From positions 4,038 through 68,037 of IMG/VR virus record IMGVR_UViG_3300007960_000002: 64,000 nt of DNA; one strand, written 5' to 3'. The notes under the pieces were generated by a model, which saw only the letters and a list, made by a program, of their open reading frames with translations, had not been told where the DNA came from and did no database searches. This DNA is from a virus. This document shows positions 8,623-62,683 of this stretch, piece by piece. The translations under genes and the position numbers were made by a program. How positions within the stretch are numbered: the first letter of the stretch is position 1; every line of letters begins with the position of its first letter.

Positions 8623-8700
8623 TGGTCTCCCAGGTAGGACTCGAACCTACGACATGCAGCTTAGAAGGCTGCTGCTCTAATCCAACTGAGCTACTGGGAG
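8623..8700 (-). tRNA. tRNA-Arg (anticodon TCT)
   Basis: Full cloverleaf: CTCCCAG/CTGGGAG acceptor, GCAGC-CTTCTAA-GCTGC anticodon arm, TTCGAGT T-loop, encoded CCA. Confidence 0.95.
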
Positions 8701-8972: not shown

Positions 8973-9296
8973 TTTATTTCTCCTATTTAACAGAGGATTT
9001 GTTTACTAAAATATATTGTCATTTATATACCCCAACAATACTATTACCTGCAATCAAAGCAGGATTAGAAGTTACTAATCCATCAGTAACTGTGAGATCA
9101 TTTGTCCTTCCATGAAGGAACATTTGTCCCCTATCAGGACCATCCAATACCATACATTTGTGAATCCCTCTAACCTTGTACAGTGGTCCTATGTAAATGT
9201 AGCGTTTTTGCTTGGGAAACATATGATTTCTCCTCAATTCTGAGAGTTGACAAGGTAAAGGAATAGTAGGGTAGTGGGTATCCTTGTTTTTAATAA

Positions 9297-9566
9297 TTAA
9301 TTAGAAAAGAAAGAGTAAAGTTTATTATATGGGAATGTTTTACCCCTGTTCCATATTGTGAATACATGCTCCCAATGATTTCTTCCCACCCGTTTACATA
9401 ATACACACTGACTAAACTCATTGGAATTATCTGCTGGCTCAAAGAAAAAACCATAAACCCCATCATCTCTTTTGTGTATCATTCGGATAGTTTTAATGTA
9501 TTCAAAATTACAACGAGCATCAATCCTGATGAATTGATAAAACTTAAAACGATTCAACAATTTCAT
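9297..9566 (-). CDS. Hypothetical protein
   Basis: GGAG RBS; 89 aa. Confidence 0.5.
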   Translation of the reverse strand: MKLLNRFKFYQFIRIDARCNFEYIKTIRMIHKRDDGVYGFFFEPADNSNEFSQCVLCKRVGRNHWEHVFTIWNRGKTFPYNKLYSFFSN

Positions 9567-9633
9567 AATATATTCTCCAAAACATCATAAGGGAAACGGC
9601 GCGATGACCGTAGTTACTTTTACTACGTAAAGC

Positions 9634-9855
9634 CTATTCAATATCATACAGTTCAGAATAGGCCATTTGTTCCATCATAGTCCAAGCTTCTTCTTCAATA
9701 GCAGCTTGTTCATCAATGGAAAGCATAGGATACGAACTAGGTTCATTAGCTCTCAGCACCTCTTCGGGATAGCCACTATACATATCGTTATAGCCACTGT
9801 ATTCATCTCCTACTTCATCATCAGGAGAAGCAATATGTTGAGAAAACATTTTCAT
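9634..9855 (-). CDS. Small acidic protein
   Basis: GGAG RBS; D/E/Y-rich. Confidence 0.55.
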   Translation of the reverse strand: MKMFSQHIASPDDEVGDEYSGYNDMYSGYPEEVLRANEPSSYPMLSIDEQAAIEEEAWTMMEQMAYSELYDIE

Positions 9856-9990
9856 TAGTGATACTCCAATCGTCTGTTGATAGGGATTTGTTTGTCTTGT
9901 GCATATCCAGCCACTTCTGCATTAGTAATAATAAATACAATAAAAATAGTATAATTAGGTAGCACCACCTCCCCCTTTATTTAGTAACTA

Positions 9991-10440
9991 TTAATAAATG
10001 GTATGTTCATTAATCACTTCTTCAAATGATACACTCTCAGAGTAATACCCGTTACTTGTGCCATACCAACGGATAGTAACACGCCCTTTAATTGTCCCTA
10101 GTTTATAGAATGTCCATGTTTCTGAATCTGTTACACAACTCTCATTACTGCCCTCACCCTGTAATTCATTAAGTGTGAAAGAAAGCTTATCATTTTCAGT
10201 AAGAAAATCTTTTTCTAATTCATTCGATTCTACTTCCTCCGCTTCAAGGATTGGATAGCCAATCAAATCATCCCAATCTCCACAAATATCTTCCACCTCC
10301 ACCGATTCACAACAATCTTGATGATGGTGCATAATATACTTCTTACCATCATCTGTTGTAAAGACAATAGTATATTCATTTGCTTTTACATCAACTATTG
10401 TCTTCCCTTTTAATAGTATAATACTCATATATCCTCCCAC
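9991..10440 (-). CDS. Conserved phage protein (HHQDCCE...TWTFYKL...WYGTSNGYYSE family)
   Basis: Recognisable motif set of a widespread phage family of unknown function. Confidence 0.75.
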   Translation of the reverse strand: MGGYMSIILLKGKTIVDVKANEYTIVFTTDDGKKYIMHHHQDCCESVEVEDICGDWDDLIGYPILEAEEVESNELEKDFLTENDKLSFTLNELQGEGSNESCVTDSETWTFYKLGTIKGRVTIRWYGTSNGYYSESVSFEEVINEHTIY

Positions 10441-10802
10441 CTATCTTTCATTCTTTGAACTACTTCATCAGGAACACCATGAATGTTTTTATATTGTCCA
10501 TTCATAGTAATAATAGTTAATTTTACACCTAACTCGTCAGCTAGATTAATGTATGGCTGTAATTCCCACTTCTTTATAAATGTATTAGCAACAGCTACAC
10601 TATTCCCCTTTTCTAAATGAAACCTTGTACCTTGAAAGCACTTCTCATGGCATTCAGGGAGACGACTGGGATCAAAAGAATATTTCAGTCTATCATCCAC
10701 CATGAACATATCAGCTTCCATAACCCAATAATCAGGAATAGACATAGCAAATGTTGATTTACCACTGCCAGGTAAACCACGAATGAGAAGTAAGTTAGCC
10801 AT
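10425..10802 (-). CDS. P-loop kinase (AAA_33 / polynucleotide-kinase-like)
   Basis: RGLPGSGKST, EADMF, VAVANTF and HGVP motifs. Confidence 0.85.
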   Translation of the reverse strand: MANLLLIRGLPGSGKSTFAMSIPDYWVMEADMFMVDDRLKYSFDPSRLPECHEKCFQGTRFHLEKGNSVAVANTFIKKWELQPYINLADELGVKLTIITMNGQYKNIHGVPDEVVQRMKDRWEDI

Positions 10803-11128
10803 TACAATATTCTCCCATATTTAGCAATAGAAATATCTTTGTATGTCGGATTAAATGGCTTATCAGCAAAGAAACAAGCCCAAACAGGAGTACAATGTTG
10901 TCTCACTTCACCAATAGGATTGCCATCTAAGTCTACCTCTTGAACAATCCATCCCCATCGTCTTCCTTCATCGGTTTTACCAAAACCTAAAACATTGGCC
11001 CATGTTTGCCAATAATCATTATAAACATACAACCCAATATACATATCTTTTAATTGTGCTTGTTTATTCATGGGTGGGTAAGACATTACAATTCTCCTAT
11101 AGAAAAGACAAAGAATAATATTAATCAA
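10802..11128 (-). CDS. Hypothetical protein (likely start at MSYPP)
   Basis: AGGAG RBS before the internal ATG. Confidence 0.55.
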   Translation of the reverse strand: MINIILCLFYRRIVMSYPPMNKQAQLKDMYIGLYVYNDYWQTWANVLGFGKTDEGRRWGWIVQEVDLDGNPIGEVRQHCTPVWACFFADKPFNPTYKDISIAKYGRIL

Positions 11129-11163
11129 AGCTACTAATTAAATATTAATAGCTTCTGTTAATA

Positions 11164-11406
11164 CTACTGCTCCATGGCTTCTTCAATTAACAGCTTTGCT
11201 TCTTTCAAGCTGCAGTCCAGCATCGCCCTGACAATCTTAATTGCCTGGATTTTAAATGTTGTTTCACGGTACATAGGGCAGGAATTATTATACATAGAAG
11301 CCTTTTCCCTCAAGACTTCCACAATCTGGATAGCTGCCCACTGCTTATCTTCCAGAATGATAGACATACCATCCCGACAAACAACAGTCTTCTTTTCAAC
11401 ACTCAT
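11164..11406 (-). CDS. Protein with a ribosomal bL12 (L7/L12) C-terminal-like motif
   Basis: KIQAIKIVRAMLDCSLKEAKLLIE resembles the bL12 CTD motif KxxxIKxVRxxxxxxLKEAKxxVE; start MSVEKK follows an AGGAG RBS. Confidence 0.65.
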   Translation of the reverse strand: MSVEKKTVVCRDGMSIILEDKQWAAIQIVEVLREKASMYNNSCPMYRETTFKIQAIKIVRAMLDCSLKEAKLLIEEAMEQ

Positions 11407-11441
11407 TTTTTTCTCTCCTCTTGTGAATGACAGACAATAAA

Positions 11442-11475
11442 AAAGCCCCCTATTCAATTAAGAATAAGAGGCTTT
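11442..11475 (-). terminator. Intrinsic terminator-like hairpin
   Basis: AAAGCCTCTTATTC-loop-GAATAGGGGGCTTT followed by a U-tract; G-U pairs form only on the minus strand. Confidence 0.65.
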
Positions 11476-11486
11476 GTTATTGAAAG

Positions 11487-11744
11487 CTATCTAATCTTAT
11501 TACGGAATACTGCACCATGTACCCCTGTAATAATGTTTCTAGGCACTACCCCAGTATGAGCATATTTACTATGCTTATTCTGTCTCCTCTCATCCCGAGA
11601 CATACGTGCATTGTCTTGCTTGACTTCACCGGGTTTACACCCCATAAAGGAATTAAAACGAGACTGGTTTAGTTTCCTCAGTTGTTGCGGAGTCATATTT
11701 TTCCTCCAAGATAATATTGATACGTTCGCAAGCAACAAACGCAT
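11487..11744 (-). CDS. Small basic hypothetical protein (likely start MTPQQ)
   Basis: GGAGG RBS before the internal ATG. Confidence 0.5.
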   Translation of the reverse strand: MRLLLANVSILSWRKNMTPQQLRKLNQSRFNSFMGCKPGEVKQDNARMSRDERRQNKHSKYAHTGVVPRNIITGVHGAVFRNKIR

Positions 11745-11952
11745 TAAGCTTAATCTTCTCTAATCCTTTCCGTTTGATAGCACGAGGAAAAGAGATAAGA
11801 TTGAGCTTGTTTCTCCAGTTGATATACCCATCAATGGAGGTATGAGGGTTTAATTCTAAAAAACAATAAACCCTATTATTCACTTCCCATAGAGCGTTTA
11901 ATTTATCTATAGACAATTCTCTGTATTGATCCATTATTTCAGAAACATACAT
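11653..11952 (-). CDS. Hypothetical protein
   Basis: AGGGG RBS. Confidence 0.5.
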   Translation of the reverse strand: MYVSEIMDQYRELSIDKLNALWEVNNRVYCFLELNPHTSIDGYINWRNKLNLISFPRAIKRKGLEKIKLNAFVACERINIILEEKYDSATTEETKPVSF

Positions 11953-11976
11953 TATAAGTCCCCTATTAAAGACAGA

Positions 11977-12019
11977 TATTATTAATACACACTCAATAAT
12001 AGAATATGTATTAATAATA
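11977..12019 (-). other. Long intergenic RNA hairpin (RNase III site or terminator candidate)
   Basis: TATTATTAATACATATTC / GAGTGTGTATTAATAATA 18-bp stem including G-U pairs. Confidence 0.55.
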
Positions 12020-12049
12020 CATAAAGGGCCTCCCTGCCCTTTTAATGTA

Positions 12050-12553
12050 TCAAGCGGCTGCTTCGCTCATCGCCCTGCGAAAACGGGATTCGATTTCCTG
12101 GTTTGACAGTCCTTCTTTGTCCATTCCCTTGCGTAGAACAGCAACTAATGCCTTATCAAAATCAAAGGCATTATCAGCAGATTGTTTATTAAACATATCC
12201 CACCGCTGGCCATTAGCCAGTTGATGGGCAGCCTTATCCCAGTCCATTTCACTAAACTTCCGCTTTCCAGCGACCTTATAACGCTGGGTTTCTTTATCCC
12301 AAGAAACAGGAAGTTCCAAGAAGCGGAAGTAAGCATTCATTTGCTTACCGTCACTCCCGACAACTAACTTGTCTCCCGATTTATGGGATAAACCTTCGAC
12401 CAAGTCGGTAAGCCAATCAGTGTTACCCATGGAGAGCTGGTAAACTGCCCCACCGATAGCTGTTTGCAACATTGCAGCAGCCGATACCCGCGCCTTGACG
12501 GCCTCAGCCAGATACTTACGAGAGACGGAAGAAAAATCGTTAATGGTAGCCAT
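12050..12553 (-). CDS. First leftward (early) gene, hypothetical, higher GC than its neighbours
   Basis: Start MATINDF after a GAGGA RBS; the track extension to 12640 is unlikely. Confidence 0.7.
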   Translation of the reverse strand: MATINDFSSVSRKYLAEAVKARVSAAAMLQTAIGGAVYQLSMGNTDWLTDLVEGLSHKSGDKLVVGSDGKQMNAYFRFLELPVSWDKETQRYKVAGKRKFSEMDWDKAAHQLANGQRWDMFNKQSADNAFDFDKALVAVLRKGMDKEGLSNQEIESRFRRAMSEAAA

Positions 12554-12629
12554 AATAAACATCCTCGGAGTGGTTAAAAATACATTGATATATATCACAG
12601 AATTATGATATATATTCATATATTCTTTA

Positions 12630-13145
12630 CAGTCCTCCAAACTCGGCTATCTAATCTAATAGTTAGCTCGCATATCCATAAGGTGGCGGTATCAATCCAT
12701 AGCCTCATAAGCCCCATATCATGCACTACATAAGCCTCTGCTTATGCTGTGATAGTGGGAAGCGTTCCCTGCCCCTATACCATTGCAAGCCTGCCGATAA
12801 CCTAAGCCCATCCGCTGTTTATATGGTTCAAAATCACATAATCCAATTAATCCGATGATGCCGATTAATCAAACTATGTTCATCCAAACCTAAACAGTGT
12901 ATGCCTAGGGATTTTAATTGCTGATTTAGTGCGTCAAGGTTTTCTATGACCCAAACCGTATTCCAACACTCTCGTGTTATCCGCTTACTGTTCAACTTCA
13001 GCCGGATAGGTTATTGCAAACAATTAGGCCCTGTTCTCTACGGATAACAGCAGCCATATTGCTTTATACCTAAATGCAACAAAGGGAGAATTAATTAATG
13101 GTCCTTGTTCCCCTCTAATTGCCATCCAATGGCTTACTACTCGGA
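12630..13145 (-). ncRNA. Candidate large (~500 nt) structured non-coding RNA
   Basis: No ORF of 60 aa or more; about ten hairpins, including a 17-bp stem with four G-U pairs (12863-12879 with 12836-12852) and a GAGA tetraloop; begins just downstream of a sigma54 promoter. Confidence 0.6.
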
Positions 13146-13154
13146 CCTAATAAT

Positions 13155-13171
13155 AGCAACCACTGTGCCAA
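13155..13171 (-). promoter_or_regulatory. sigma54 (RpoN) -24/-12 promoter
   Basis: TTGGCAC-AGTGG-TTGCT matches the TGGCAC-N5-TTGCW consensus exactly. Confidence 0.75.
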
Positions 13172-13245
13172 CTATGAAAAACAATAGAGAAAACAATAAC
13201 CTACTCAATAACAGGATATACTAATGTAGAGAAATAACCATAAAA

Positions 13246-13351
13246 TGTAAAATATTCTGACACTATTCCCATGAATAAAACAACTATAGCGAGAGAAAAC
13301 AACAACATACTCATCTGTAAAGAATCCTGACAACTGTCAATAAATTTAACA
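13246..13351. promoter_or_regulatory. Three TGT-N11-ACA enhancer-like (bEBP UAS) sites
   Basis: Sites at 13246-13262, 13316-13332 and 13335-13351, about 100-200 bp upstream of the predicted sigma54 start. Confidence 0.55.
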
Positions 13352-13809
13352 ACTGAACAATGAAGAGAATAAATACATGAAATATATAGAGAATAAATAG
13401 GAACAATATTGCAATGAGATTTAATGAACTAATCCATAGGAACAATACAATTATAATGAAAGAAAACAACAACATATGTAAGAAATAGGACATAAACAGG
13501 AGAATATGTATCATATCACAGGAAGCCATGTAAGCCATTCTAAGCTATCCAAGCTTCTATCCTGCCCGTGGTATCAACCAATAGCACAATGGCTTAGAAC
13601 GCAGCACATGGCCAGCTAGAGTTATAGAACAAACAGAGAACATACCCACCAATAACAGAACAGTGTACATATATATAAGGAATAGATGTGAATAAAAAGA
13701 ATAGGGGATGGCATGATATGTGCTACCTTGTGGGGCTTGCAGAATGATAATACTATCAACTAAATGTGTGGTAAAAAAACAACAATAAGTTAGATGTGTA
13801 GGAGGAAAT

Positions 13810-13856
13810 ACACTATATATTGAATAAGCAGGACACATAAACACAATATATTGTGG
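13810..13856. promoter_or_regulatory. Tandem NrdR-box-like operators
   Basis: ACACTATATATTGAAT (13810-13825) and ACACAATATATTGTGG (13841-13856), 31 bp apart. Confidence 0.6.
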
Positions 13857-14123
13857 TCTATCAATAATTTACATAGGAATGTTGAGATCATAGAATAGGT
13901 TTATAATGGTGTAGATGGTATATATATGAAGGGGGGTTGTTAGAATAAAGGTGGTAGGGGGAGGGTCTTATTATATATATTATCCTACCTATAAACACAA
14001 TACTTGTTTTTTTTATTTAACAATACTTGATATTTTATATATCTACCTTGTTTTTTTTATTTAACAATATTTTATATTATTTTTCAATTATTTAATTTTT
14101 TTTAATTATTTTTTCATTTTTAG

Positions 14124-14151
14124 GGAACTTTTTTTGATTTCTGTTGTCTAA
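14124..14151 (+). promoter_or_regulatory. ECF/sigmaE-type promoter at the head of the late arm
   Basis: GGAACTT-TTTTTGATTTCTGTTG-TCTAA. Confidence 0.75.
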
Positions 14152-14630
14152 AGGTTGTATGAAGCAATTATAGTAAGGAATATCATTTTAGGGATAGTAA
14201 GAAATCATAGGATGGTTTGCTCTAATCCAACACTCATCAAAGGAATGATGTTTTAAACAGTCGCCCCTTTAATCCGGGGGAGTACATCTACTAGTAGGTA
14301 TATAGCACCTGAGTAGAGTCAAAACAGGCAAGACACATTAACAGTCAATGCTCTCCTTTAGACACCTCACTATATGATTTTAGACATTCATGGTGAGGAC
14401 AATGTTTAAATGGAAGTAGACACCTCACCATGATACATAGTATATAATACTATGACATCAACAAGAGAAGGGCTACTCTTTAAAATAGCTTCCTGATAAT
14501 TGACTAAGACTATACGCATAACAGACTACCATAGAATATTTAATATATATTCTATCATGGTAGGAGTGTTAGGATTAAACATGTCTAAAATAAATTAATT
14601 TAAATAGATTCTTTGACATAATTGCGTCTA

Positions 14631-15008
14631 ATGTACAGATTCTCTAATTCTTCATATTATAAATTATATGGTGTCAATCCTAAATTAATTTCTTTAGCTA
14701 CACTAGCTCTAAAATATTCTGATGTAGATTTTGGTGTTAGTGAGGGCGTAAGAAGTAAGGAAAGACAAAGAATGTTATTTAAAATGGGTAAGTCTCAAAC
14801 AATGAATTCTAAGCATTTAAAGGGTGATGCTATTGATGTCTTTGCTTGGGATGATGGAGTGAAATGGGATTTCTACTATTATAATAAAATTAATGAAGCT
14901 TTTAAATTAGCTGCTCATGAATTAAATATTGATTATGTTTGGGGTGGTGATTGGCATACATTTAAAGATGGTGTTCACTTTGAGTTAGATGATAATGCAA
15001 AATTTTAA
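14631..15008 (+). CDS. Endolysin, L-Ala-D-Glu peptidase (M15, T5 Lys-like)
   Basis: EGVRSKERQ, SKHLKGDAIDV, WGGDW and DGVHFEL motifs. Confidence 0.9.
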   Translation: MYRFSNSSYYKLYGVNPKLISLATLALKYSDVDFGVSEGVRSKERQRMLFKMGKSQTMNSKHLKGDAIDVFAWDDGVKWDFYYYNKINEAFKLAAHELNIDYVWGGDWHTFKDGVHFELDDNAKF

Positions 15009-15429
15009 ATCAAAACAAAGAATTTCTCTTTCTAGAAATATTAAAGATAAAAAGCGGTTTGAAGTGTTAGAAGATATTTTTTATAAAAATATTATAATCC
15101 ATGAGGGTTTTAAAACTGATGGTGCTAGTATTAAGTTTGGTAGATATGCTGTTGGTTGTCCATTTGAAGGAGTTTATTTAGGCCCTGCTATAGTACATGA
15201 TATGTTATATGTCTCGAAGAAATGTTCTAGAAAAGAAGCAGACAAAGAGTTTAAGGAAGCTTTATTAGATGTTGGTGTTTCTAAATTGAAAGCTAATGTT
15301 ATGTATTATGCCGTTAGAATGTTTGGTAGATGGCCTTGGGAGAATTACACTGAAGAAGAAATATACACAGCAAGACAATTTCTCACAATTATACCAGTTA
15401 GTTATGGAGATTTCATCGGAAGTGAGTGA
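14989..15429 (+). CDS. DUF1353-family protein
   Basis: GFKTDGASI, AIVHDMLY, RKEADKEF, MYYAVRMFG. Confidence 0.8.
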   Translation: MIMQNFKSKQRISLSRNIKDKKRFEVLEDIFYKNIIIHEGFKTDGASIKFGRYAVGCPFEGVYLGPAIVHDMLYVSKKCSRKEADKEFKEALLDVGVSKLKANVMYYAVRMFGRWPWENYTEEEIYTARQFLTIIPVSYGDFIGSE

Positions 15430-21563: not shown

Positions 21564-21640
21564 GGCGGGGTAGAGAAGTGGTTGTTCTCGCCGGCCTCAT
21601 AAGCCAGAAATCGTAGGTTCAAATCCTACCCCCGCCTCCA
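21564..21640 (+). tRNA. tRNA with CAT anticodon (Met or Ile2)
   Basis: GGCGGGG/CCCCGCC acceptor, CTCATAA loop, TTCAAAT T-loop, encoded CCA. Confidence 0.9.
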
Positions 21641-49019: not shown

Positions 49020-52000
49020 AATCTCCTAATTTAGACCAATCAACATCTTTAGGCATATTTTCTAAAAGAGTATTATATTCTTCTTCGCTAATTTCTTGAT
49101 AAGGGGCTTGTTTATATGTATGATTTGAATGAGGAAGAAAACTAATTCCACTAATCTCATCAAAATATTTATAAACCCATGCTCCTACTTCCATCCATTC
49201 TTCATCCTTTACATATACAGTAATAGAGGGTTTATGTTCACACCAATGCCTTTGATATGTTAACCAAAGCTCTAACTGTTCAATAGCTGTTCTATCATCC
49301 CTAAATATAGAATTCTCTGGAGATTTAATAGGGAAACTAAATACAGATACACTATCAGGCTTATTCTGTGCATCTTCTACAGGAAATCCAACATCAGTCA
49401 TATACTTTGCTAATGGATCTTTTTTATCAGCTCGTACAGTTCTAATATAGTATGGAGAGTGACGAGAATGAATGCCACTAGCGCTGTCCACCAACTGAGA
49501 GACAGTACCGGAAGGCTTACAAAAGTTCAACATCAGTCGTTACCTGATGCCCGTTTTAGGCGGTAGTAATGAGTTTTACTGATTCCAAACTTTCTCTTAG
49601 CTTCTTTAAAAGAATATTTTAAAATTTCTTCTGCACAATATGTGTCTTGTTTTGCCCAATATTCTTTAGAAACTTTAGAAAATAAACGTTTATTTTCATC
49701 AGTATGATTCATACCTAAAGCTGGTTTTCTACCTTGACGTTTAGACCTTAACTTCTTTTTCCAACCTTCAACGTCCTGTACCACAAAACCACCTTCACCG
49801 CCTTTAGCTAAATTAAGGATATTATGTTTTAAATTTCTAGCTTCTTCAATTAGAGTGATTTCTTTTTCACAACACTCTTGATGAGTTAAACTATCATCTT
49901 TTAACACAATAATAAAATCATTATACTTTCTCATGCAGTCATATAAAGGGGATTTAACGCCCCCTTTTGCACAAGATTTATGCTGATTTAATCTAGTTTG
50001 TAACTTGTTTTTAGTGATACCGATATAATACCACTTAGTAGATCTACTTACTAGATAATAAACCTTATAATTAGCTACACTGCCCTCAGATTTCTCTGGG
50101 GATCGGACTATATCTTCCTCTTTAGTAAGAGGCCCTGCACTTCCACAACACTTGTTGTGTACTCCGTCTTCACGGATAGTCTCTGAACCTTCCTCATTAG
50201 AGGCTTGGCTGCTGATTGCCATATCTTTCGACTTAGGTTTCCAGCAGTTCACAGGGTTATCCATCATTAGTTACCTAATGTGGGTGCTAATTCATTAACA
50301 CAAGTGATAGCGGCAGCAGGGTTAATCCCAAGTTTAGCAGCCCACTCTTTATTTGTAATAATTGCTTCATTACGCATCTCTTCTAAAAACTCTTCTAAGT
50401 TTCTTGGTAATTCACCAGTACCACTTACTGTCCATGTACTACTACCATTTAACACAGGATGATCCATAATACCAGTTAGTGATACACCAAGTAATGCTTC
50501 TTCCTCTGTATTTTCTTTCCACTTCTTAGAAAGATAACGGAAATTTACTAATGATGCTTGAAGTGTACCAAGGATTGTAGCAGCTCGTACTTTCCTTTTA
50601 AGGTCGTCCATCGTGTCACTATGTCTAACCACAACTTCTGAGAGGTTACAAAATTGCCTGTCTCGGAGAATAATTTCAGAGCATGGATTTGTTCCAAAAT
50701 CAAACTCTGCATTTCTTCTTCCGTTTTTCTCAGCTTGTTTTTTACTCGCTTCTCTGTTAAAGATGCCACGTTCTCCACTTTTACTCTCCACTAAGGCAAG
50801 CCATTCTCTCATAAATGTTTCAGCATCTGGCTTTTCTGTATAAGCTACAGAATTATTAGCTAGTTCATATTCTTTATGGTCTACCCACCACTGACCAGAC
50901 TTAGCATGACGCATCCTATCATCACTAAGATTAGAGAGACTGATTAATGCACTTCTACGACTATTTGGACTATATCTTTACATTTAATGTATCGGACGCT
51001 ATTTAGTGTTTGTATTTCCATATTCACTTAGTCTCTGAACCTTCCTCATCATGAGGCTTGGCTGCTGATTGGTTTTCACTTTCCAGCAATTCATCCGACG
51101 CTTGGGGCTCGTAGTATTTAACTAGGTAATTATTTAACATTGTATTTTTCTTCACATTCTTCAAATAAGGTGTTAAACTATCCAAGAAGGGCTTGTTCTT
51201 CTCTGTGTTTTGAGCTTGAAGTCTCCAGACATTATCACCATGCTGCCTTAATGTCGTAGGTACATTAAATCTCTCAAAAATTGATTGAAGATCACTTAAA
51301 AATAGTTCACTTTCATGTGTAATAAAAAAGCGTAATCTTGGTGTTCTACAATCTTTTCTATTAGTGACGGTTATAAACCCATCGGCATCTATACATCCAG
51401 CAAGATAAGGCAAAAGGAAGTCTTGTTTAATCCCAACAATTCTTCTATCTTTCTTATATTTAAATATACCAAACTTATTAAAAGAGTGGTTCATTTTAGC
51501 TGGAAATCTTAGTTCAAATACATTATTTCTAGCTGTAACCTTTTTTGAAGATTTTTTACCTACATTATAAACAACCCTATCAGGGCAATACCTATTATTG
51601 AAATGATTAATAATATGTTCTTCAGTGCTGCTTACCATCATAAAAGGGTATTTAGAATTAATATAACCCCCATCACAAGCCATATATCCAATTAAATAAG
51701 CAGTGAAATTATTCTCAATTTTATCAAATACTCTACAATGTTTTTTACTACCCTTATCTGTGTACTCGATTACTCTTTCCATAGGATTTCTCCTCTATCA
51801 GATTTAAAACTGAAAGGCTTAGTTTCTTGCCTCTACCCCGCCGACAACGACGATGTCTGCAATTTTACAAACAAGGCCATGCACTTCAATAGATGTAAGC
51901 TTACGGCCAGTAGCATTACGGAACAAATTAACAGAATAATTAAATAAATCATCTAATGGTTCTGGACCCGATGCCCTGCCTCCAAATGTTTTGAGTGGGG

Positions 52001-52532
52001 CACCTGCGGGGCGAATCTTAGACAAGTCCCATTTCGGGATTTTACCAGAGTAAAGAAGGCTGAGGAGTTCTCTAAATCCAGTAGCCCAACCGATTTTGCT
52101 ATCTGTAATAACGATTGACGTTTCACTCTCGTACATTTCCTCAGCTATAGTTGGTAGTTTGCTCACTTCTTGACGTTCACAACTAAAACCTACTCCAGTT
52201 CCACACATAAGGATATACATTAATTCATCAAAAGCACGTTGTCTATTAATGGCAACATAAGAACAATTATATCCTGCTACTTCATCTCTATTTAATGCTT
52301 CACCTGCTGTCATTAAAGATCTCATGCTGGGCATAATTTCTAGATCATAAATTGCTTGCTGTAATTCTGATCTAATACCCTTTACACTATCTGGAAACCT
52401 ATTCTCCCAAAAATCCATCAATCTACAAACAGTTTCGCTCCAAGATTCCCTCCGATTCTCATTAGGAAGCCATCTAGCATAGCGCGAAAGCGCAATAAAT
52501 TCGCCATATTGTGGGTATGAATGCTTATTCAT
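48943..52532 (-). CDS. nrdJ: Class II (B12-dependent) ribonucleotide reductase in three exons: 52532-51835, 50960-50298, 49519-48943 (645 aa spliced)
   Basis: GYNCSY, GTNPCSEI, FCNLSE and C-terminal CTGGVC; splicing restores VVGGVRRSA and TCVKPSGT in frame. Confidence 0.92.
49520..50297 (-). mobile_element. Group I intron 2 in nrdJ
   Basis: 5' splice after U in P1 (GTGT/GCAC), P AACTGCTGGAAA, Q AATCAGCAG, R TTCAGAGACTA, S AAGATATAGTCC, terminal G. Confidence 0.9.
49533..50267 (-). CDS. Intron-encoded GIY-YIG homing endonuclease
   Basis: KVY...YYIG.T, RLNQH, conserved E, LNLAKGG, NUMOD3-like GMNHTDE. Confidence 0.85.
   Translation of the reverse strand: MMDNPVNCWKPKSKDMAISSQASNEEGSETIREDGVHNKCCGSAGPLTKEEDIVRSPEKSEGSVANYKVYYLVSRSTKWYYIGITKNKLQTRLNQHKSCAKGGVKSPLYDCMRKYNDFIIVLKDDSLTHQECCEKEITLIEEARNLKHNILNLAKGGEGGFVVQDVEGWKKKLRSKRQGRKPALGMNHTDENKRLFSKVSKEYWAKQDTYCAEEILKYSFKEAKRKFGISKTHYYRLKRASGND
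50961..51834 (-). mobile_element. Group I intron 1 in nrdJ
   Basis: P1 GGGGT/GCCTT with a U-G splice pair, P AATTGCTGGAAA, Q AATCAGCAG, R TTCAGAGACTA, S AAGATATAGTCC, terminal G. Confidence 0.9.
51024..51782 (-). CDS. Intron-encoded double-motif LAGLIDADG endonuclease
   Basis: YLIGYMACDG and YLAGCIDADG; own AGGAG RBS. Confidence 0.9.
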   Translation of the reverse strand: MERVIEYTDKGSKKHCRVFDKIENNFTAYLIGYMACDGGYINSKYPFMMVSSTEEHIINHFNNRYCPDRVVYNVGKKSSKKVTARNNVFELRFPAKMNHSFNKFGIFKYKKDRRIVGIKQDFLLPYLAGCIDADGFITVTNRKDCRTPRLRFFITHESELFLSDLQSIFERFNVPTTLRQHGDNVWRLQAQNTEKNKPFLDSLTPYLKNVKKNTMLNNYLVKYYEPQASDELLESENQSAAKPHDEEGSETK

Positions 52533-55680: not shown

Positions 55681-56867
55681 TCATTTCATCAACTCTTGTA
55701 AAATAATATACTCTTTCATAGCGCATTTATGAAAACAGTCTTCTGGATATTTATCCACTATAATAGATTGTCCTATCTTAGTACATGAATAGCCACAAGA
55801 AGGATAACTTTCACCATAATCTTGTTCCCAGTAAATTAACCTAGAACATTGCTTTTGTTCACATATATCAGTTAGGTCCATAATTCCTTCACCGCTTGAA
55901 ACCCTTTGGCTTCTTTTAATATATTAAGAGGAAGTTCAAGTTTCTCTAATTCTTCAAAACAATTAAATTGAATATATGTATCACACCCTGTAATATTAGG
56001 ACCTCCAATAACAAAAGCTCTATTATTTTTAGACATACGCCAGTTAAAATAATATTTATCCCAATTCATTCATCACCATCCAAGTTTTATATCTTTCCTC
56101 TTCTTTCTTTGTAAGACAATAACACAGATCTATTTCTTCTTTAGTAAATAATGTAGTAGCTTCAATATCAGTCCTGTGTCTAATAATTATAATATTTCTT
56201 GTAGTATTTAATACAAACCTTGGTGAACCAATTAAATCAGAATACCTGTCAAGAAAAATAATTGTAGGGGTCTTTACCCATCGAAAGAAGTTTATAACAT
56301 TTCGTTTAATATCTCCCACAACTGCACCTCTTTTTTAGTTCCTTCAGGCCATTTAGACTCTTTTAAATTATAAAAGGGAATAAATAATCCATCACTATTC
56401 CTTTCCCAGTATAAAAAGGGAGTTTTATTATAAGTCTTTTTTGTATAAAGGGTAAATCTATCCCCTCTTAATACTATTTCACCATTAGTTATCCATCTCA
56501 TTAATAACACTCCAAACTTTTGCTTTATGGGACTCTTCATCTGGAATATTTCCAAATTCTTTTATTCCTTCACTATTATATATATGGTCAACCCTTGGTT
56601 CTTCAAAATAAGCTATAAAAATTGGCATATTAAAGAGGTTAGAATAATATTCATCAAAATAAATTTTAGAAGCCCTCATTTTAATTCTCTCATCACTCTC
56701 CATTGTATCTCTTTCTGTTTTTCCTCATATGGAATATCATAAGAAAAATTCCCTAATACGCGTCTTATTAAACATCGGGGAATATTTTGTATTATGCAAT
56801 AAATAGGCTCCCCATAATAGTCACTAGTTATTTCATCAAATAAAACTTTAAAAGTCCTCATCTTCAA
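55681..56867 (-). other. Array of six overlapping small ORFs sharing a C-terminal motif
   Basis: ORFs 55681-55881, 55872-56069, 56056-56319, 56292-56555, 56485-56703 and 56676-56867. Confidence 0.6.
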
Positions 56868-59800
56868 CTAAATACTCCTCATACTTATTTAATGGGATTT
56901 CCGTAAGCCTTCCAGTATCTTTTTCATAAGCTAAATAACATGCAATTCCAGTTAAACCAGCATATCTATTCTTTAATACTCTAACGGTAGTAAGGTTAGC
57001 TAGTTTATCTGTTGGTGCTTGTTGATCACGCTCTAAACCGATTACAGCATCACTTAATTGAGCAATAGATTGACTACCACGTAAATGGGATAGAGTCACT
57101 TCTTTACCCCTTTCATGTCCTTTATCACCTTCAGTTCTACGTAGATGAGATACAAGGAAAAGGCCAGCTCCAGTTTCTTCCGTAAGAGTACGTAGTTTAG
57201 TCATAATACTATCAATTGTCTTACGTTCATCTCCACTATCTTGAGCAGAAACAACAATGGATAAATGGTCTAAAATAATCCATTTACAATCTAAAGCTTT
57301 TATTAAATACCTAACCCTATTTAATAAGTTGTCTTCACTAGTAGAGCCAAAATGATCATAGATAGCAATACGGCCAGTACCATGAGTATTCTCCCACCAT
57401 TTATCAACGAGTTTATTCCAATTAATTGGATCTTTTTGTTCTGCTTTATACCGTTCTTCTAAAATCATTAAAGGTTTATTAGCTTCAATAGACATCATTC
57501 CCCACATAGTCTTATCTGGAGATTCTTCTAAAGCTAAAACACCAATATTATCATCAGTTGTTTTATGAATCCAATGTGATAATTCTCTTGTGACAGCAGA
57601 TTTCCCTAATCCTGAATTTCCAGTAATAAAGATATTTTTACCTCTTCTAAGGACTAACATACCAGAGGGGACAGTAAAACAATATTTAAACCCATCTATT
57701 GTTTTATATTTTTTGAATGTTGGTGATGAAGTACTAGTTTTTCTAAATGATACGTTTGTTACCTCAGTTGTATAAACATTATACTCAGTATGACCTTTTT
57801 CATGTCTAGGTATAGTTAATAATGTTGCTCTCTTACCAATAGCAGAGAAAGCATATTGAATGAATTTAGCATCTTCTTCTATAGTAGAAAAGAAGACTGA
57901 TTTCTGATCGCCATCCCATTGGAGACATTCTTCACAAATAACTTCTAACTCTCTCTTTGTACAAATTCTATACCAATATTTACTATATGTTTTTTTCAAA
58001 AAAGGTGGTTTGAAATAAAAATCCGAATAATCTCCTCGTTGTTGCACTTTATATTTTATATTAGCTTCAGTTAATAGTTTATGTGCCCTTTTAATTTTTC
58101 TTCCTTTTTTTAAATTTACCCTACCAATATTTTTTTGTATACAACCATCTGCTTGGAACATAACTTGAACACGTAATTGTTCTTCAGTAAGGCCAGTTCC
58201 ATTATTTAATGGTGCTTCAAATGTTGTTAATATTTTTCCACGAAACCCTGTTGTCTGAGAATCATGAATTTCCCTAATTTCACGTAATATCTTCTCTCTT
58301 AAGACATTTGAGTTCTCTGTTTTATATATAACCCGATGTTCATCAGAAAGTACTTGATCAACCCCATACTTTGTTTTAATATGCCATAGATAATTAGTGG
58401 GCTTTTTAATATATCTCTGTGGGTAAACAAAAGATGTTGAACCATCTTTATGGTATTGAAGTACCATATCATAATTTTCTTTATAATTAGATATCTTTTT
58501 CCATCCATCATTTGATAAAAACTCGGTATCAGCGTCTACACAACCGGCTGTTAATGTAACTATCTCTCTTTCTCTAAATCCATATAATTTATCATTCCAT
58601 CCATTCCAGGGAAAGGGATGAGACTTAATATGTTTATTTTTATCTAATAGTCCACGTAAATCCTTTGTTTTAAAAATACCATCTGGATGAAACTCTTTAG
58701 CATTAAAGATAGATTGTTTAAATTCTTTAAGCTTTTTATTTTGCAGCATATCATTTGGATCTTTCTCACTAAAATTAGCGATCTTTACCTGCCCTGGGTT
58801 AAATAATTCTGCTATCTCCCTGGCAGCTTTCTTTCCTGGCCGGTCTTGATCAAATGCAAGAATAATAGTTTTAAATTTATCTAGCCATTCATATTGGTCT
58901 TTAATTGCCCTAACATTAGCACCATCTGGAAGAGATACTACATTATACCTATCTCCATTTTGTTTAGTCATCATCATCCATGCAGCGGCGGCATCACAGT
59001 TCCCAGAAATTGAGATACTACCTTTTTGCCTAACTAATAACATTCCAGATGGAACTGTTAAACAGTAAACCTTACCATTATATGGAATAGTTTTATATCC
59101 TCTTTGTGCTGCTGAAGATGTTTTATTTAAAAGAATTGAAACTTTATACCAAGATCCATATTGATTAGATCTTGGTATAATGGTAGAAACCCATCCATTT
59201 AAATGGGCTAGTGTTTGAACAAATTTTGCATTGTTATATAATTTAGAAGAATATTCTAATTGTTTTTTCCCTTGTACATAGTTTCCATCCCAATTAACAG
59301 CTTCCCAAAGAAAGGTAGAAATCTGACTACTATTAAATTTATAGATTAATGAATGGTCAAATTCTTTTGCCCAAATTCTCGAAATATCGTTTGTTTTAAA
59401 CACTCTATAATCTACATATCCATCATTCCTTGTATTTTTTGAATATTCTAGATTAAGATTTGATAAAATCCATTCTGCTCTCTCTCTTTTCCTATCTTTT
59501 TTAAAAGAAGCTCTAGGACCACCTTGAGTTAAACTATAACTCCAATCAGCAGAAAACATCACCATAGCCCTGATTTCCATATCAGAAAGGTCACACCGAT
59601 TATTATCCTCTAAACTATATAATACCCTTGGTATATTAAAGTGTTTATTAGAATCATCTCTTGCTTTTTGTTTAATTAAATTTCCATTATTTTTATTAAT
59701 CCTAACTAAATTATGGTCTGGTGTAGTAATTGATTCCCAAGATCCAGACTTATATTGTACTAAATCACCATTAAAATCTTTTTCTACTTTAAAATCAGGA

Positions 59801-60396
59801 TAAACCCATTCTCCACCTTGATTTGAATTAATTTGTAACACTTTACCATTTTTATAATCTTTAAATGCTGTCCATCCTTCTTCTGTTAAAACTTCAGCAT
59901 CTGGAAGGAAACACTCCCCCTCTGTAATAATGACCGTAGTTCCGCCTTTTATTTTATCCTGTCCAAACAGTCCATATGTAGTGGTGTCACCAATCTTATA
60001 AAAACGCTTAGTATCACATTCTCTAATCTTATAACCTACCACCTGACCATTATGTATATTAGGATAGTAATGTTTTTCTACTTCTCCCGTTGTAGGGTGG
60101 TAACTAACTTTAATACCAAAATTACTACAGGCTTCTCTTGATAAACCCCGATCACTAATTGCTTTAACAGGGAGTGATTTTACATCATTCATACTTACTC
60201 TATTATTCACATTAACCTCATAATTAATTGAATGGTCTTGGGATAATTGTTTATATTTCTTATTATCATCACACTCCCCAAAACAATAACCCGTGATAGT
60301 TCCATCTTTATTTTCATACACAGCTAATCTAGTAGATTTATCATGAGTAGAACAATCTGGGCATGGGATGTTCTTTATGTGTTTACTTTCAGCCAT
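56848..60396 (-). CDS. T7 gp4-like primase-helicase precursor with two inteins (mature about 568 aa)
   Basis: N-terminal Zn ribbon CPDC..CFGEC, TOPRIM TEGE/CD and FDQD, Walker A AG/SGLGKS, ILDHL, LRGSQSIAQLSD, KNRYAG. Confidence 0.95.
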   Translation of the reverse strand: MAESKHIKNIPCPDCSTHDKSTRLAVYENKDGTITGYCFGECDDNKKYKQLSQDHSINYEVNVNNRVSMNDVKSLPVKAISDRGLSREACSNFGIKVSYHPTTGEVEKHYYPNIHNGQVVGYKIRECDTKRFYKIGDTTTYGLFGQDKIKGGTTVIITEGECFLPDAEVLTEEGWTAFKDYKNGKVLQINSNQGGEWVYPDFKVEKDFNGDLVQYKSGSWESITTPDHNLVRINKNNGNLIKQKARDDSNKHFNIPRVLYSLEDNNRCDLSDMEIRAMVMFSADWSYSLTQGGPRASFKKDRKRERAEWILSNLNLEYSKNTRNDGYVDYRVFKTNDISRIWAKEFDHSLIYKFNSSQISTFLWEAVNWDGNYVQGKKQLEYSSKLYNNAKFVQTLAHLNGWVSTIIPRSNQYGSWYKVSILLNKTSSAAQRGYKTIPYNGKVYCLTVPSGMLLVRQKGSISISGNCDAAAAWMMMTKQNGDRYNVVSLPDGANVRAIKDQYEWLDKFKTIILAFDQDRPGKKAAREIAELFNPGQVKIANFSEKDPNDMLQNKKLKEFKQSIFNAKEFHPDGIFKTKDLRGLLDKNKHIKSHPFPWNGWNDKLYGFREREIVTLTAGCVDADTEFLSNDGWKKISNYKENYDMVLQYHKDGSTSFVYPQRYIKKPTNYLWHIKTKYGVDQVLSDEHRVIYKTENSNVLREKILREIREIHDSQTTGFRGKILTTFEAPLNNGTGLTEEQLRVQVMFQADGCIQKNIGRVNLKKGRKIKRAHKLLTEANIKYKVQQRGDYSDFYFKPPFLKKTYSKYWYRICTKRELEVICEECLQWDGDQKSVFFSTIEEDAKFIQYAFSAIGKRATLLTIPRHEKGHTEYNVYTTEVTNVSFRKTSTSSPTFKKYKTIDGFKYCFTVPSGMLVLRRGKNIFITGNSGLGKSAVTRELSHWIHKTTDDNIGVLALEESPDKTMWGMMSIEANKPLMILEERYKAEQKDPINWNKLVDKWWENTHGTGRIAIYDHFGSTSEDNLLNRVRYLIKALDCKWIILDHLSIVVSAQDSGDERKTIDSIMTKLRTLTEETGAGLFLVSHLRRTEGDKGHERGKEVTLSHLRGSQSIAQLSDAVIGLERDQQAPTDKLANLTTVRVLKNRYAGLTGIACYLAYEKDTGRLTEIPLNKYEEYLVEDEDF
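57616..58542 (-). mobile_element. Intein 2 (309 aa) in the helicase Walker A motif
   Basis: G|CVDADTEFL...EHRV...YCFTVPSG...ITGN|S. Confidence 0.9.
58999..59913 (-). mobile_element. Intein 1 (305 aa) in the primase TOPRIM motif
   Basis: E|CFLPDAEVLT...TPDH...VYCLTVPSG...ISGN|C. Confidence 0.9.
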
Positions 60397-61131: not shown

Positions 61132-61911
61132 TTATATACACTCTCTGAGGAGATAATCTACAGAAAGCTCCAAAGGACTAAACCAACCACTACCATCTAC
61201 TTCATTTAATTGGATGGCTCCCCTCCAATGAGGATTGCCCTGTGGTCCCATATACTCTAAGTTTTCTTGGTAAAAACTACCTGCTATAAGACCTCTTAAT
61301 ACCTTACCATTAGGTAGGTACCGAGGACTAGCAGTTCTTAATCCTTGCTTATGTCCCTGCACAAAAGAGAAACCTAATTTTGATAATTGTAAATCAATAT
61401 TAGAAGAGAAAGGCATCTTCTTAGCACTATCAGGATTAACCCAATAGTGAGAAAAATATATACCTTCTATTTCTACAGGCTCTAAATAACCATATACTTC
61501 AAAACCCATTTGGAAAAGCATTAAATCGTTATACGACAGTTTCCCATTTAAATAAGGATATGCTTGAATATGACGTTTAATTCGTTCTTCATGATTACCC
61601 AATAAAAATACTTTACGTGGGGTATATTGTCTCTTTTTCTGTTCTCTGCTTTTATTCTGGTCCATTTGAATTGGTAATAGTAACCTTTGCATAGCTTTAA
61701 TGCCAGCTAAAATATCATCTTGATATCTAGTTCCCTCATTAGCTAATCTACCTTGATCATAACTACTAAGGCTTTTCATATCCCAATGATCACCAAGGTG
61801 AACAATAATATCTGGTTTATGTTTAACAGCATAATTACCTAATGCTTCTAAATGATCTGTATTAGAATCAGGAGTAACTTGTGTATCTGGAATTATTAAG
61901 ATTTTCTTCAT
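61132..61911 (-). CDS. Calcineurin-like metallophosphoesterase
   Basis: IPDTQ, HLGDHWD, LGNHE, SHY, QGH. Confidence 0.85.
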   Translation of the reverse strand: MKKILIIPDTQVTPDSNTDHLEALGNYAVKHKPDIIVHLGDHWDMKSLSSYDQGRLANEGTRYQDDILAGIKAMQRLLLPIQMDQNKSREQKKRQYTPRKVFLLGNHEERIKRHIQAYPYLNGKLSYNDLMLFQMGFEVYGYLEPVEIEGIYFSHYWVNPDSAKKMPFSSNIDLQLSKLGFSFVQGHKQGLRTASPRYLPNGKVLRGLIAGSFYQENLEYMGPQGNPHWRGAIQLNEVDGSGWFSPLELSVDYLLRECI

Positions 61912-62182
61912 ACTTTAATACCTTTATGTAATCTTCAAGAGAAAGGGATAATAAACACTCATTCCATGTTTTCTTAAACCTAAGCCAATCTTTTCCTTCA
62001 AAGTTGGACTTACCTTTAAATTTAAATACTATAAATTCAAATATCCTTTCATGCACATTAAATATGGGATCAAAATATATATTTCTAATGTGACCTGCAG
62101 TTCCAACGCCTTGACCAGCAGGTGAATAGAAAAACTGCCATTCTAAATCTCTAATTAAATCACCCGGTTTTCTTTCTTTCAT
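61868..62182 (-). CDS. Hypothetical protein (LSLEDYIKV motif)
   Basis: Coupled ORF. Confidence 0.5.
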   Translation of the reverse strand: MKERKPGDLIRDLEWQFFYSPAGQGVGTAGHIRNIYFDPIFNVHERIFEFIVFKFKGKSNFEGKDWLRFKKTWNECLLSLSLEDYIKVLKYEENLNNSRYTSYS

Positions 62183-62534
62183 TTTGTGATTTTATTTTAT
62201 GACAGTCAATACATAATACTTGATATGATGTTGGGTCTTCTGGTGTAAGTCTTTTTAACCAATCAACTAAATCCTCTTCACATTTTAAACTACCAACTGG
62301 TATAATATGGTCTACCTGTACTTCTGTAGACTTAAACCAATTCTTACAATGATTACATTGAAATTCCCACTTTTGCCTTTTGTTCTTTCCTTTATATATC
62401 CTCCTAGCAGATAATTTAGCTTTTTGCATTGGCTTCCAATATCTAAAAGCTCTCCTTAAAAAGCTTCTAACTTGTTGCCAATATCTTGCCTCTGTCCATT
62501 GATTGTCGTTTCTCGTCTTTTTTACTTTACTCAT
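62160..62534 (-). CDS. HNH endonuclease
   Basis: CNHC, QVDHIIPVG, QVLCIDCH. Confidence 0.85.
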   Translation of the reverse strand: MSKVKKTRNDNQWTEARYWQQVRSFLRRAFRYWKPMQKAKLSARRIYKGKNKRQKWEFQCNHCKNWFKSTEVQVDHIIPVGSLKCEEDLVDWLKRLTPEDPTSYQVLCIDCHKIKSQNERKKTG

Positions 62535-62683
62535 AAAATAAAGGAATAATAAATTTTACTATAAGAACATATAGGGATAATGTTGTTACAATGCCAATTG
62601 TAAAGCTAATTAAAAACTTAATTACAGTTTCCATTATCCTTTCCTTTGATATTTATCATCATAAATTTTAGATGGGATCAGGT

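Follow-up and report, generated by a model that had tools for sequence, protein, structure and literature searches.

The window analysed here is a stretch of 64,000 nucleotides, bases 4038-68037 of a 68,037-bp IMG/VR virus record (IMGVR_UViG_3300007960_000002) whose two ends match each other. Its source is an uncultured 68-kb freshwater podophage, and all positions below are those of the window. Genes are arranged in two divergent arms. The left arm is read leftward from the ATG at 12553, with small orphan genes first and then replication genes, and the right arm starts at 14622 and is read rightward, with genes for an endolysin, the two terminase subunits (small and large) and the portal. The 2.07 kb or so between the arms (12554-14621) hold no credible gene, the two ORFs listed there (75 and 95 aa) resembling low-complexity T-rich frames. 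The stretch under study, 12630-13145, is the GC-richer left quarter of this gap. Six runs, all of DNA type and from freshwater or estuary, contain all or part of it, and none of the runs listed for it is of RNA type. The features of the locus are the following:

13186-13201, 13292-13307 and 13459-13474, minus strand: a TGTTGTTGTTTTCTCT-like motif in three direct repeats, which may be regulator sites or iterons
13150-13178, minus strand: promoter-like site, TTCATA-17-TATTAT with a TG before the -10, overlapping TGGCAC-N5-TTGC
12554-13145, minus strand: candidate 5' leader, about 590 nt and ORF-free, reaching from the predicted transcription start as far as the ATG of gene 1
12801-12909, minus strand: long arm, an imperfect hairpin of 109 nt and 41 pairs in four helices (7, 7, 8 and 17 bp)
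12565-12640, minus strand: A+U-rich hairpin with a 22-bp stem (12627-12576), closed by UUGGAG (12640-12635) paired to CUCCGA (12570-12565)
12566-12562, minus strand: ribosome-binding site GAGGA of gene 1, whose start codon is the ATG at 12553-12551
12050-12553, minus strand: gene 1, 167 aa, a member of a small metagenome-only family with no assigned function
12023-12042, minus strand: terminator-like hairpin directly 3' of gene 1
11475-11442, minus strand: second terminator-like hairpin, after gene 3 and stronger than the first

An earlier sequence-only reading had described the minus strand of 12630-13145 as free of ORFs, and it is so. TAA, TAG and TGA are each present in all six frames of 12554-13200, at 10 to 18 stops per frame, and the longest minus-strand ORF of the stretch has 53 aa. 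Inspection of the sequence revealed no ribosome-binding site for the small ORFs (30-53 aa) of the stretch. Coding under an alternative code was ruled out as well, since no stop reassignment rescues a frame when every frame contains all three kinds of stop. The base composition is less simple. The stretch has a G+C content of 42.6%, compared to 35.2% in the window, 33.1% in its non-coding part and 30.9% in the remainder of the gap, which forms the upstream control region; the gene just downstream of the leader reaches 46-49%. The stretch had been called more GC-rich than its flanks, which is correct with respect to the upstream control region and to the window, but not to the downstream gene.

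Two explanations other than a leader draw on these observations. The first is a stand-alone large non-coding RNA of about 520-570 nt, ending at the A+U-rich hairpin and its U run and acting in trans, which would be either the first of a new ornate class or derived from a 5' UTR by premature termination. We consider it unlikely. The absence of an ORF speaks for it, as does a G+C content 7 points above the window mean, like that of the gaps bearing tRNAs, but gene 1 is even more GC-rich, so that this composition may be due to where the DNA came from rather than to RNA structure. The second is that the stretch has no RNA function and is spacer or decayed horizontally acquired DNA, the long arm being an imperfect DNA palindrome such as a protein site, an origin element or the relic of a mobile element. 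This we find doubtful. It can draw on the resemblance in G+C to the adjacent orphan gene, but stops at the density given above are too frequent for a recent pseudogene. Reading the stretch as a leader provides no explanation, for its part, of why some 400 nt of it lie at 41-47% G+C, well above the non-coding mean of 33%.

The stretch was proposed to be promoter-proximal, beginning at the position expected for a sigma54 start. A promoter-like site does lie just upstream of it, at 13178-13150. Read as a sigma70-type extended -10 site (TTCATA-17-TGcTATTAT), it matches at 9 of 12 positions plus the TG, a match that is weak when taken alone, as 12 promoter-like sites were detected in the region against 11.8 expected. 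The sigma54-type motif TGGCAC-N5-TTGC has a single exact copy in the 64 kb, at 13170-13156; with up to one mismatch allowed it occurs twice where 1.96 occurrences are expected, so that this motif too is weak evidence by itself. Both motifs predict a start near 13142-13146. The sigma54 motif is confirmed and would put a start near 13144; this reading is not exclusive, as the overlapping sigma70-type site leads to the same start. A sigma54-like promoter has been reported in phage YuA, in a study of Pseudomonas phages (10.1101/2023.10.13.562163), and this gives a sigma54-type motif in a virulent phage a precedent. A literature search on sigma54 phage early promoters, on ROOL and GOLLD in phages and on the lambda N leader returned nothing specific to the element.

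Upstream of the promoter, the TGTTGTTGTTTTCTCT-like copies lie about 40, 150 and 315 nt from the predicted start. At up to three mismatches the motif has five matches against 1.39 expected; the copies with 0 to 2 mismatches are found only upstream of the promoter and are the only close ones in 64 kb. They are not palindromic, and repeat families D4-D6 were detected around 13186-13474. An enrichment in ATTAAT (86 against 69.5 +/- 8.4) was dropped because it was not localised. Further away, at the centre of the divergent control region, 14003-14123 contains two 44-bp tandem repeats and further A+T repeats, at 17-22% G+C, and looks like a replication origin or a DNA-unwinding element. Just upstream of the late arm, 14201-14800 folds strongly on both strands (300-nt z of about -3 to -3.4) and contains palindromes, and a direct repeat, TAGACACCTCAC, is present at 14359 and 14417; these are DNA-level elements, operator- or terminator-like. 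The absence of any RNA function would be in keeping with such a neighbourhood, an origin-like control region with direct repeats and 44-bp tandem repeats of 17% G+C.

Folding was measured as minimum free energy (MFE) against dinucleotide shuffles. On the minus strand the whole of 12630-13145 reaches -154.8 kcal/mol (z -3.17), which none of 100 shuffles equals; for the plus strand z is -1.26, and 11 of 100 shuffles do as well. The minus strand had been proposed as the strand of structure, and this difference bears it out. A whole-region z of -3.17 seen on the minus strand only also speaks for the stand-alone RNA. Among 13 sense-strand coding controls of 516 nt from the same window, z extended from +0.54 to -4.96, and the candidate, at -2.86 with the separate shuffle set used for this comparison, was far exceeded by one control (-4.96) and tied by another (-2.82). 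In a composition-corrected scan of 1276 windows of 300 nt, four candidate windows ranked between 37 and 120 and a fifth 440, the top places being taken by 11101-12500, by 14201-14800 and by one group I intron.

All the helices listed by the sequence-only reading are present where it had placed them, and most of them belong to the MFE fold. Their nearly continuous look is no more than chance gives, the longest stem excepted. The MFE fold has 15 stems of at least 5 bp, against 15.05 +/- 1.99 in 60 shuffles (38 of which reach 15), a count equal to chance that weighs against a stand-alone RNA. The paired fraction is 0.66, compared to 0.61 +/- 0.025 in shuffles (2 of 60 reach it), and only the longest stem is exceptional, 17 bp against 10.4 +/- 1.8 (0 of 60). 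Moreover, the MFE structure accounts for about 0 of the ensemble and long-range pairs differ between the MFE and centroid structures, which is also unfavourable to one large RNA. We then obtain, segment by segment:

12801-12909, long arm: minus strand -40.4 kcal/mol, z -7.15 (0 of 200 shuffles as good); plus strand -23.2 kcal/mol, z -4.36
12565-12640, A+U-rich hairpin: minus strand -26.5 kcal/mol, z -6.58 (0 of 200); plus strand z -2.93
12910-13145, 5' part of 236 nt: minus strand z -1.40 (21 of 200)
12630-12800, 3' part of 171 nt: minus strand z -0.72 (42 of 200)
13010-13135, sub-segment: minus strand z -1.60, plus strand z -1.58
12925-13010, sub-segment: minus strand z -0.90, plus strand z -1.37
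12651-12800, sub-segment: minus strand z -0.67, plus strand z 0.00

Only the two hairpins fold better than expected, the rest of the stretch being chance-like (z -0.7 to -1.6). The whole-region signal does exist, on the minus strand, but it comes almost entirely from one 109-nt hairpin. That most of the stretch folds like shuffles suits DNA devoid of RNA function, and the chance-like fold outside the arm goes against a stand-alone RNA. MFE statistics are a weak test, however: the two Rfam-confirmed group I introns of the window score z -3.99 and -0.47 (the latter for 50945-51145). Since a true group I intron can score -0.47, the absence of an energy signal in the flanks does not imply the absence of structure there, and a weak signal stays compatible with a stand-alone structured RNA.

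The long arm would occupy positions +237 to +345 of the transcript. Its pairs have probabilities of at least 0.93, and it is 5th by fold stability among the 6390 110-nt windows. As the sequence-only reading had pointed out, its 17-bp stem (12863-12879 with 12836-12852) contains exactly four G-U pairs and is strand-specific. In total 8 of the 41 pairs of the arm are G-U, and 4 of the 30 in the second hairpin; on the opposite strand those of the arm become A-C mismatches, and the strand difference of both hairpins is due to their G-U pairs. The arm is also a significant DNA palindrome (plus-strand z -4.36), which is an argument for a DNA-level element without RNA function. But all eight of its non-Watson-Crick pairs are G-U on the minus strand and its three symmetric mismatches include no A-C, a pattern not expected from undirected decay, and it is single-copy in the genome, both of which count against the absence of RNA function. 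G-U pairs on the minus strand together with the absence of A-C mismatches point to selection on a minus-strand RNA, and not to a DNA palindrome.

The second hairpin lies mostly outside the coordinates first proposed and adjoins the ribosome-binding site of gene 1. Its pair probabilities are at least 0.82, it is 3rd of the 6390 110-nt windows, and it was also detected as inverted repeat I1. The closing helix UUGGAG/CUCCGA covers the first two of the five ribosome-binding bases; in a 597-nt fold the remaining ones take part in 4 bp formed with the 5' terminus of the transcript, a pairing that hinges on precisely where transcription starts. The stem of the hairpin consists nearly throughout of A-U pairs and is directly followed on the 3' side by UUUUU. 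A simple terminator scan of 12554-13145 found no terminator, this hairpin having too few G-C pairs. A hairpin followed by UUUUU at 12627-12576 could nevertheless end a transcript, as the stand-alone RNA supposes. Only these two hairpins show clear selection for RNA structure.

We then looked for known RNA families and for relatives. At gathering score, Rfam 15 (4227 models, ROOL, GOLLD, OLE, HEARO, raiA, group I and II introns, RNase P, tmRNA and 6S included) gave no match in the stretch when run on the whole window. A relaxed search of 12400-13400 (E up to 10) returned two plus-strand rows at chance level (17 bits), neither of them within 12630-13145. Positive controls came from the same window: tRNAs at 8626-8700 and 21564-21637, and group I introns at 50084-50307 and 50945-51145. 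ARAGORN detected nothing in the stretch, and in the window only tRNA-Arg (8623-8700) and tRNA-Met (21564-21640). The two programs agree with the sequence-only reading that the stretch carries no tRNA, tmRNA, RNase P or group I signature, and the Rfam check that it had suggested matched no known family even at E up to 10. This absence of any Rfam match is a further point against the stand-alone RNA. The kinship with ROOL or GOLLD, which had been evoked, has no support beyond the long arm: on either side of it (236 nt on the 5' side, 171 nt on the 3' side) the sequence folds like shuffles, and neither family was matched in Rfam. Elsewhere in the window, the two group I introns split a ribonucleotide reductase gene (49533-52532, minus strand), close to which GIY-YIG and LAGLIDADG ORFs are found, and a 1182-aa primase-helicase (56848-60396, minus strand) has a weak LAGLIDADG-like insert, possibly an intein.

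By blastn against 50,697 GenBank phages, the leader had no match. Forty-four loci around relatives of the terminase and of one nearby early gene were covered by nhmmer and blastn. Loci of TerL relatives came from IMG/VR (11, best 54%) and from JGI metagenomes (15, best 55%), and none was similar to the leader; for the gene at 9991-10428, the surroundings of its relatives (17 loci) showed neither shared synteny nor a leader match. Five whole related records gave a best E of 0.07. Four exact-word scans of collections (19- to 22-mers) returned two matches, both judged to be chance, one in a high-GC contig and one inside a membrane-protein gene of a Bacillota MAG. The closest complete relative, MW202615.1 (65 kb, TerL identity 47%), has the same two divergent arms, but the head of its arm has no Rfam match and no comparable GC-rich gap; its gene-free gaps at 61835-62576 and 64483-64836 are A+T-rich. 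In this genome the annotated major capsid protein gene (14185-15042) is immediately preceded by a gap that contains a group I intron (13803-14125). A stand-alone RNA is made less probable by this lack of homologues in GenBank phages, at the TerL and neighbour-gene loci of IMG/VR and JGI and in the exact-word scans. The leader is an orphan, without relatives found, of a kind of element already known.

Gene 1 is better furnished with relatives. A full HMMER search (E up to 0.001) gave a family of 25 representatives, the best 52% identical and none in GenBank phages; conserved motifs are WDKE, RWD and AFD. In distinct searches, IMG/VR contained no homologue, and among 5.8 billion proteins gene 1 was found only as itself. 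One apparent gene-1 relative locus was a false match based on a single 8-mer. The relatives align from the Met at 12553 (MATINDFS, compared to MTIISDFS), which fixes the start of gene 1, 8 nt downstream of GAGGA, and places the second hairpin directly at its ribosome-binding site. The protein had no Pfam, PHROG or PDB sequence match, and a protein atlas placed it in unnamed viral clusters only. Its AlphaFold model (pLDDT 88.7) had no clear fold match: the best Foldseek E was 0.41, and a wide VIA-align search gave a best Z of 5.4 over about 40 residues. Its N-terminus is not arginine-rich.

The hairpins of the leader are not isolated. Among the nine top-ranked non-overlapping folds of the 6390 110-nt windows, ranks 1, 3, 4, 5 and 9 fall within 11421-12910 on the minus strand, which is the sense strand there, and three of these folds span gene boundaries: 11941-12050 with the terminator after gene 1, 12561-12670 before gene 1, and 11421-11530 with the terminator after gene 3. 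As five of the nine lie in the early arm, stable sense-strand hairpins appear to be a general trait of the early transcript and not the mark of one RNA gene. Indeed 11130-12049 has a z of -9.7 (20 shuffles) although it holds genes with strong ribosome-binding sites, and 11300-11815 a z of -4.96. No other part of the window is as structured as 11130-12049, in which a 19-bp A+U hairpin is also found at about 12020-11976.

Antitermination elements lie between a promoter and the first terminator, and the leader sits in just such a place. It could be a cis-acting antitermination leader, similar to HK022 put or lambda nut, that modifies the polymerase so that it passes the terminators after gene 1 and gene 3. 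We regard this as quite unlikely. In its favour, 9000-12100 contains four terminator-like sites against 1.5 +/- 1.2 expected, the hairpins 12042-12023 and 11475-11442 among them, and below the terminators only two promoter-like sites on the same strand pass the scan threshold (11313-11284 and 10362-10333); with terminators and so few promoters, the polymerase would have to pass the terminators to reach the rest of the arm. However, the downstream genes could be served by middle promoters of another type, and gene 1 has neither an arginine-rich N-terminus nor a known fold. No match to the rrn boxA (13-nt consensus; up to 3 mismatches) is present in 12554-13145 either, the 48 matches found, against 39.2 expected, all lying elsewhere.

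We tentatively conclude, giving the idea slightly less than even weight, that the first early operon has a long untranslated 5' leader with two stable hairpins, and that this is what the stretch represents. The leader, of about 590 nt, would be transcribed leftward by the host RNA polymerase from the promoter at 13178-13150. The 109-nt arm may be a processing or stabilising site for a double-strand-specific enzyme of the RNase III type, or a rod bound by a protein. Sites of the RNase III type are formed by double-stranded RNA that runs almost without interruption for some two turns or longer; the 41-pair arm, with its uninterrupted 17-bp stem, has this extent, so that its length would suffice for such a site, cleavage itself being predicted. 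The A+U-rich hairpin would act as a gate, on translation of gene 1 or on transcription that continues into it. Of the earlier interpretation, the option of a leader fits this context, but a single ornate RNA of about 500 nt has no support beyond the long hairpin. That the whole 520-590-nt transcript is a large structured phage RNA of a class not yet described, the arm being its most visible domain, seems to us very improbable. We have as little confidence in what this would entail, namely that the GC-rich flanks form a tertiary structure that MFE misses and that the RNA, as the first product of infection, acts on the host, for instance as a decoy or a scaffold.

In phage lambda (the pL-N leader) and in phage T7 (the early leader, with its RNase III site R0.3), a long untranslated leader separates the first early gene from the main early promoter. 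These leaders have a long imperfect hairpin of the RNase III-substrate type, structure by the ribosome-binding site of the first gene, and a terminator after that gene. The present locus resembles them in its long hairpin, in the structure at its ribosome-binding site and in the terminator-like hairpin after its first gene. It differs from these leaders in that no boxA-like element was found, that gene 1 is unrelated to any named protein and that RNase III cleavage is predicted from helix length.

Structured 5' leaders and 5'-UTR-derived non-coding RNA candidates are described for the virulent Pseudomonas phages phiKZ, YuA, LUZ19, LUZ24, PAK_P3 and 14-1, in the study cited above (10.1101/2023.10.13.562163). 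Like these leaders, ours is promoter-proximal, ORF-free, hairpin-bearing and upstream of early genes, and a hairpin with a U run in the 5' UTR could end part of the transcripts. Such documented phage RNAs are also a point in favour of a stand-alone RNA derived from a 5' UTR. According to the same study, most of those RNAs are shorter than 250 nt and are defined by mapped 5' and 3' ends, whereas the leader of about 590 nt described here is predicted from its sequence, which resembles that of no GenBank phage. Compared to the large bacterial and phage RNAs ROOL, GOLLD, OLE, raiA and HEARO (Rfam families; for cryo-EM see 10.1101/2024.12.08.627333), the stretch is similar in size (about 500-600 nt), in the absence of an ORF, in its phage location and in its raised G+C. 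It is unlike them in having no Rfam match, no adjacent tRNA and no family of homologues, and in being without a fold signal over most of its length. Structured, conditionally terminated phage leaders are an established kind of element.

The main value of this analysis is a warning: a single long stem can produce both the look of a hairpin-dense region and a whole-region z near -3. The locus would gain in importance only if the whole 500 nt proved, from natural variants or RNA data, to be a stable, conserved RNA. If our reading is right, this podophage would be one more case of a recurring and little-studied phage design, in which long hairpin-bearing untranslated leaders precede the first genes. 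It would offer two clean elements, the rod of 41 pairs and the hairpin that adjoins the ribosome-binding site, behind a promoter that can be read equally as sigma54 or as extended -10 sigma70.
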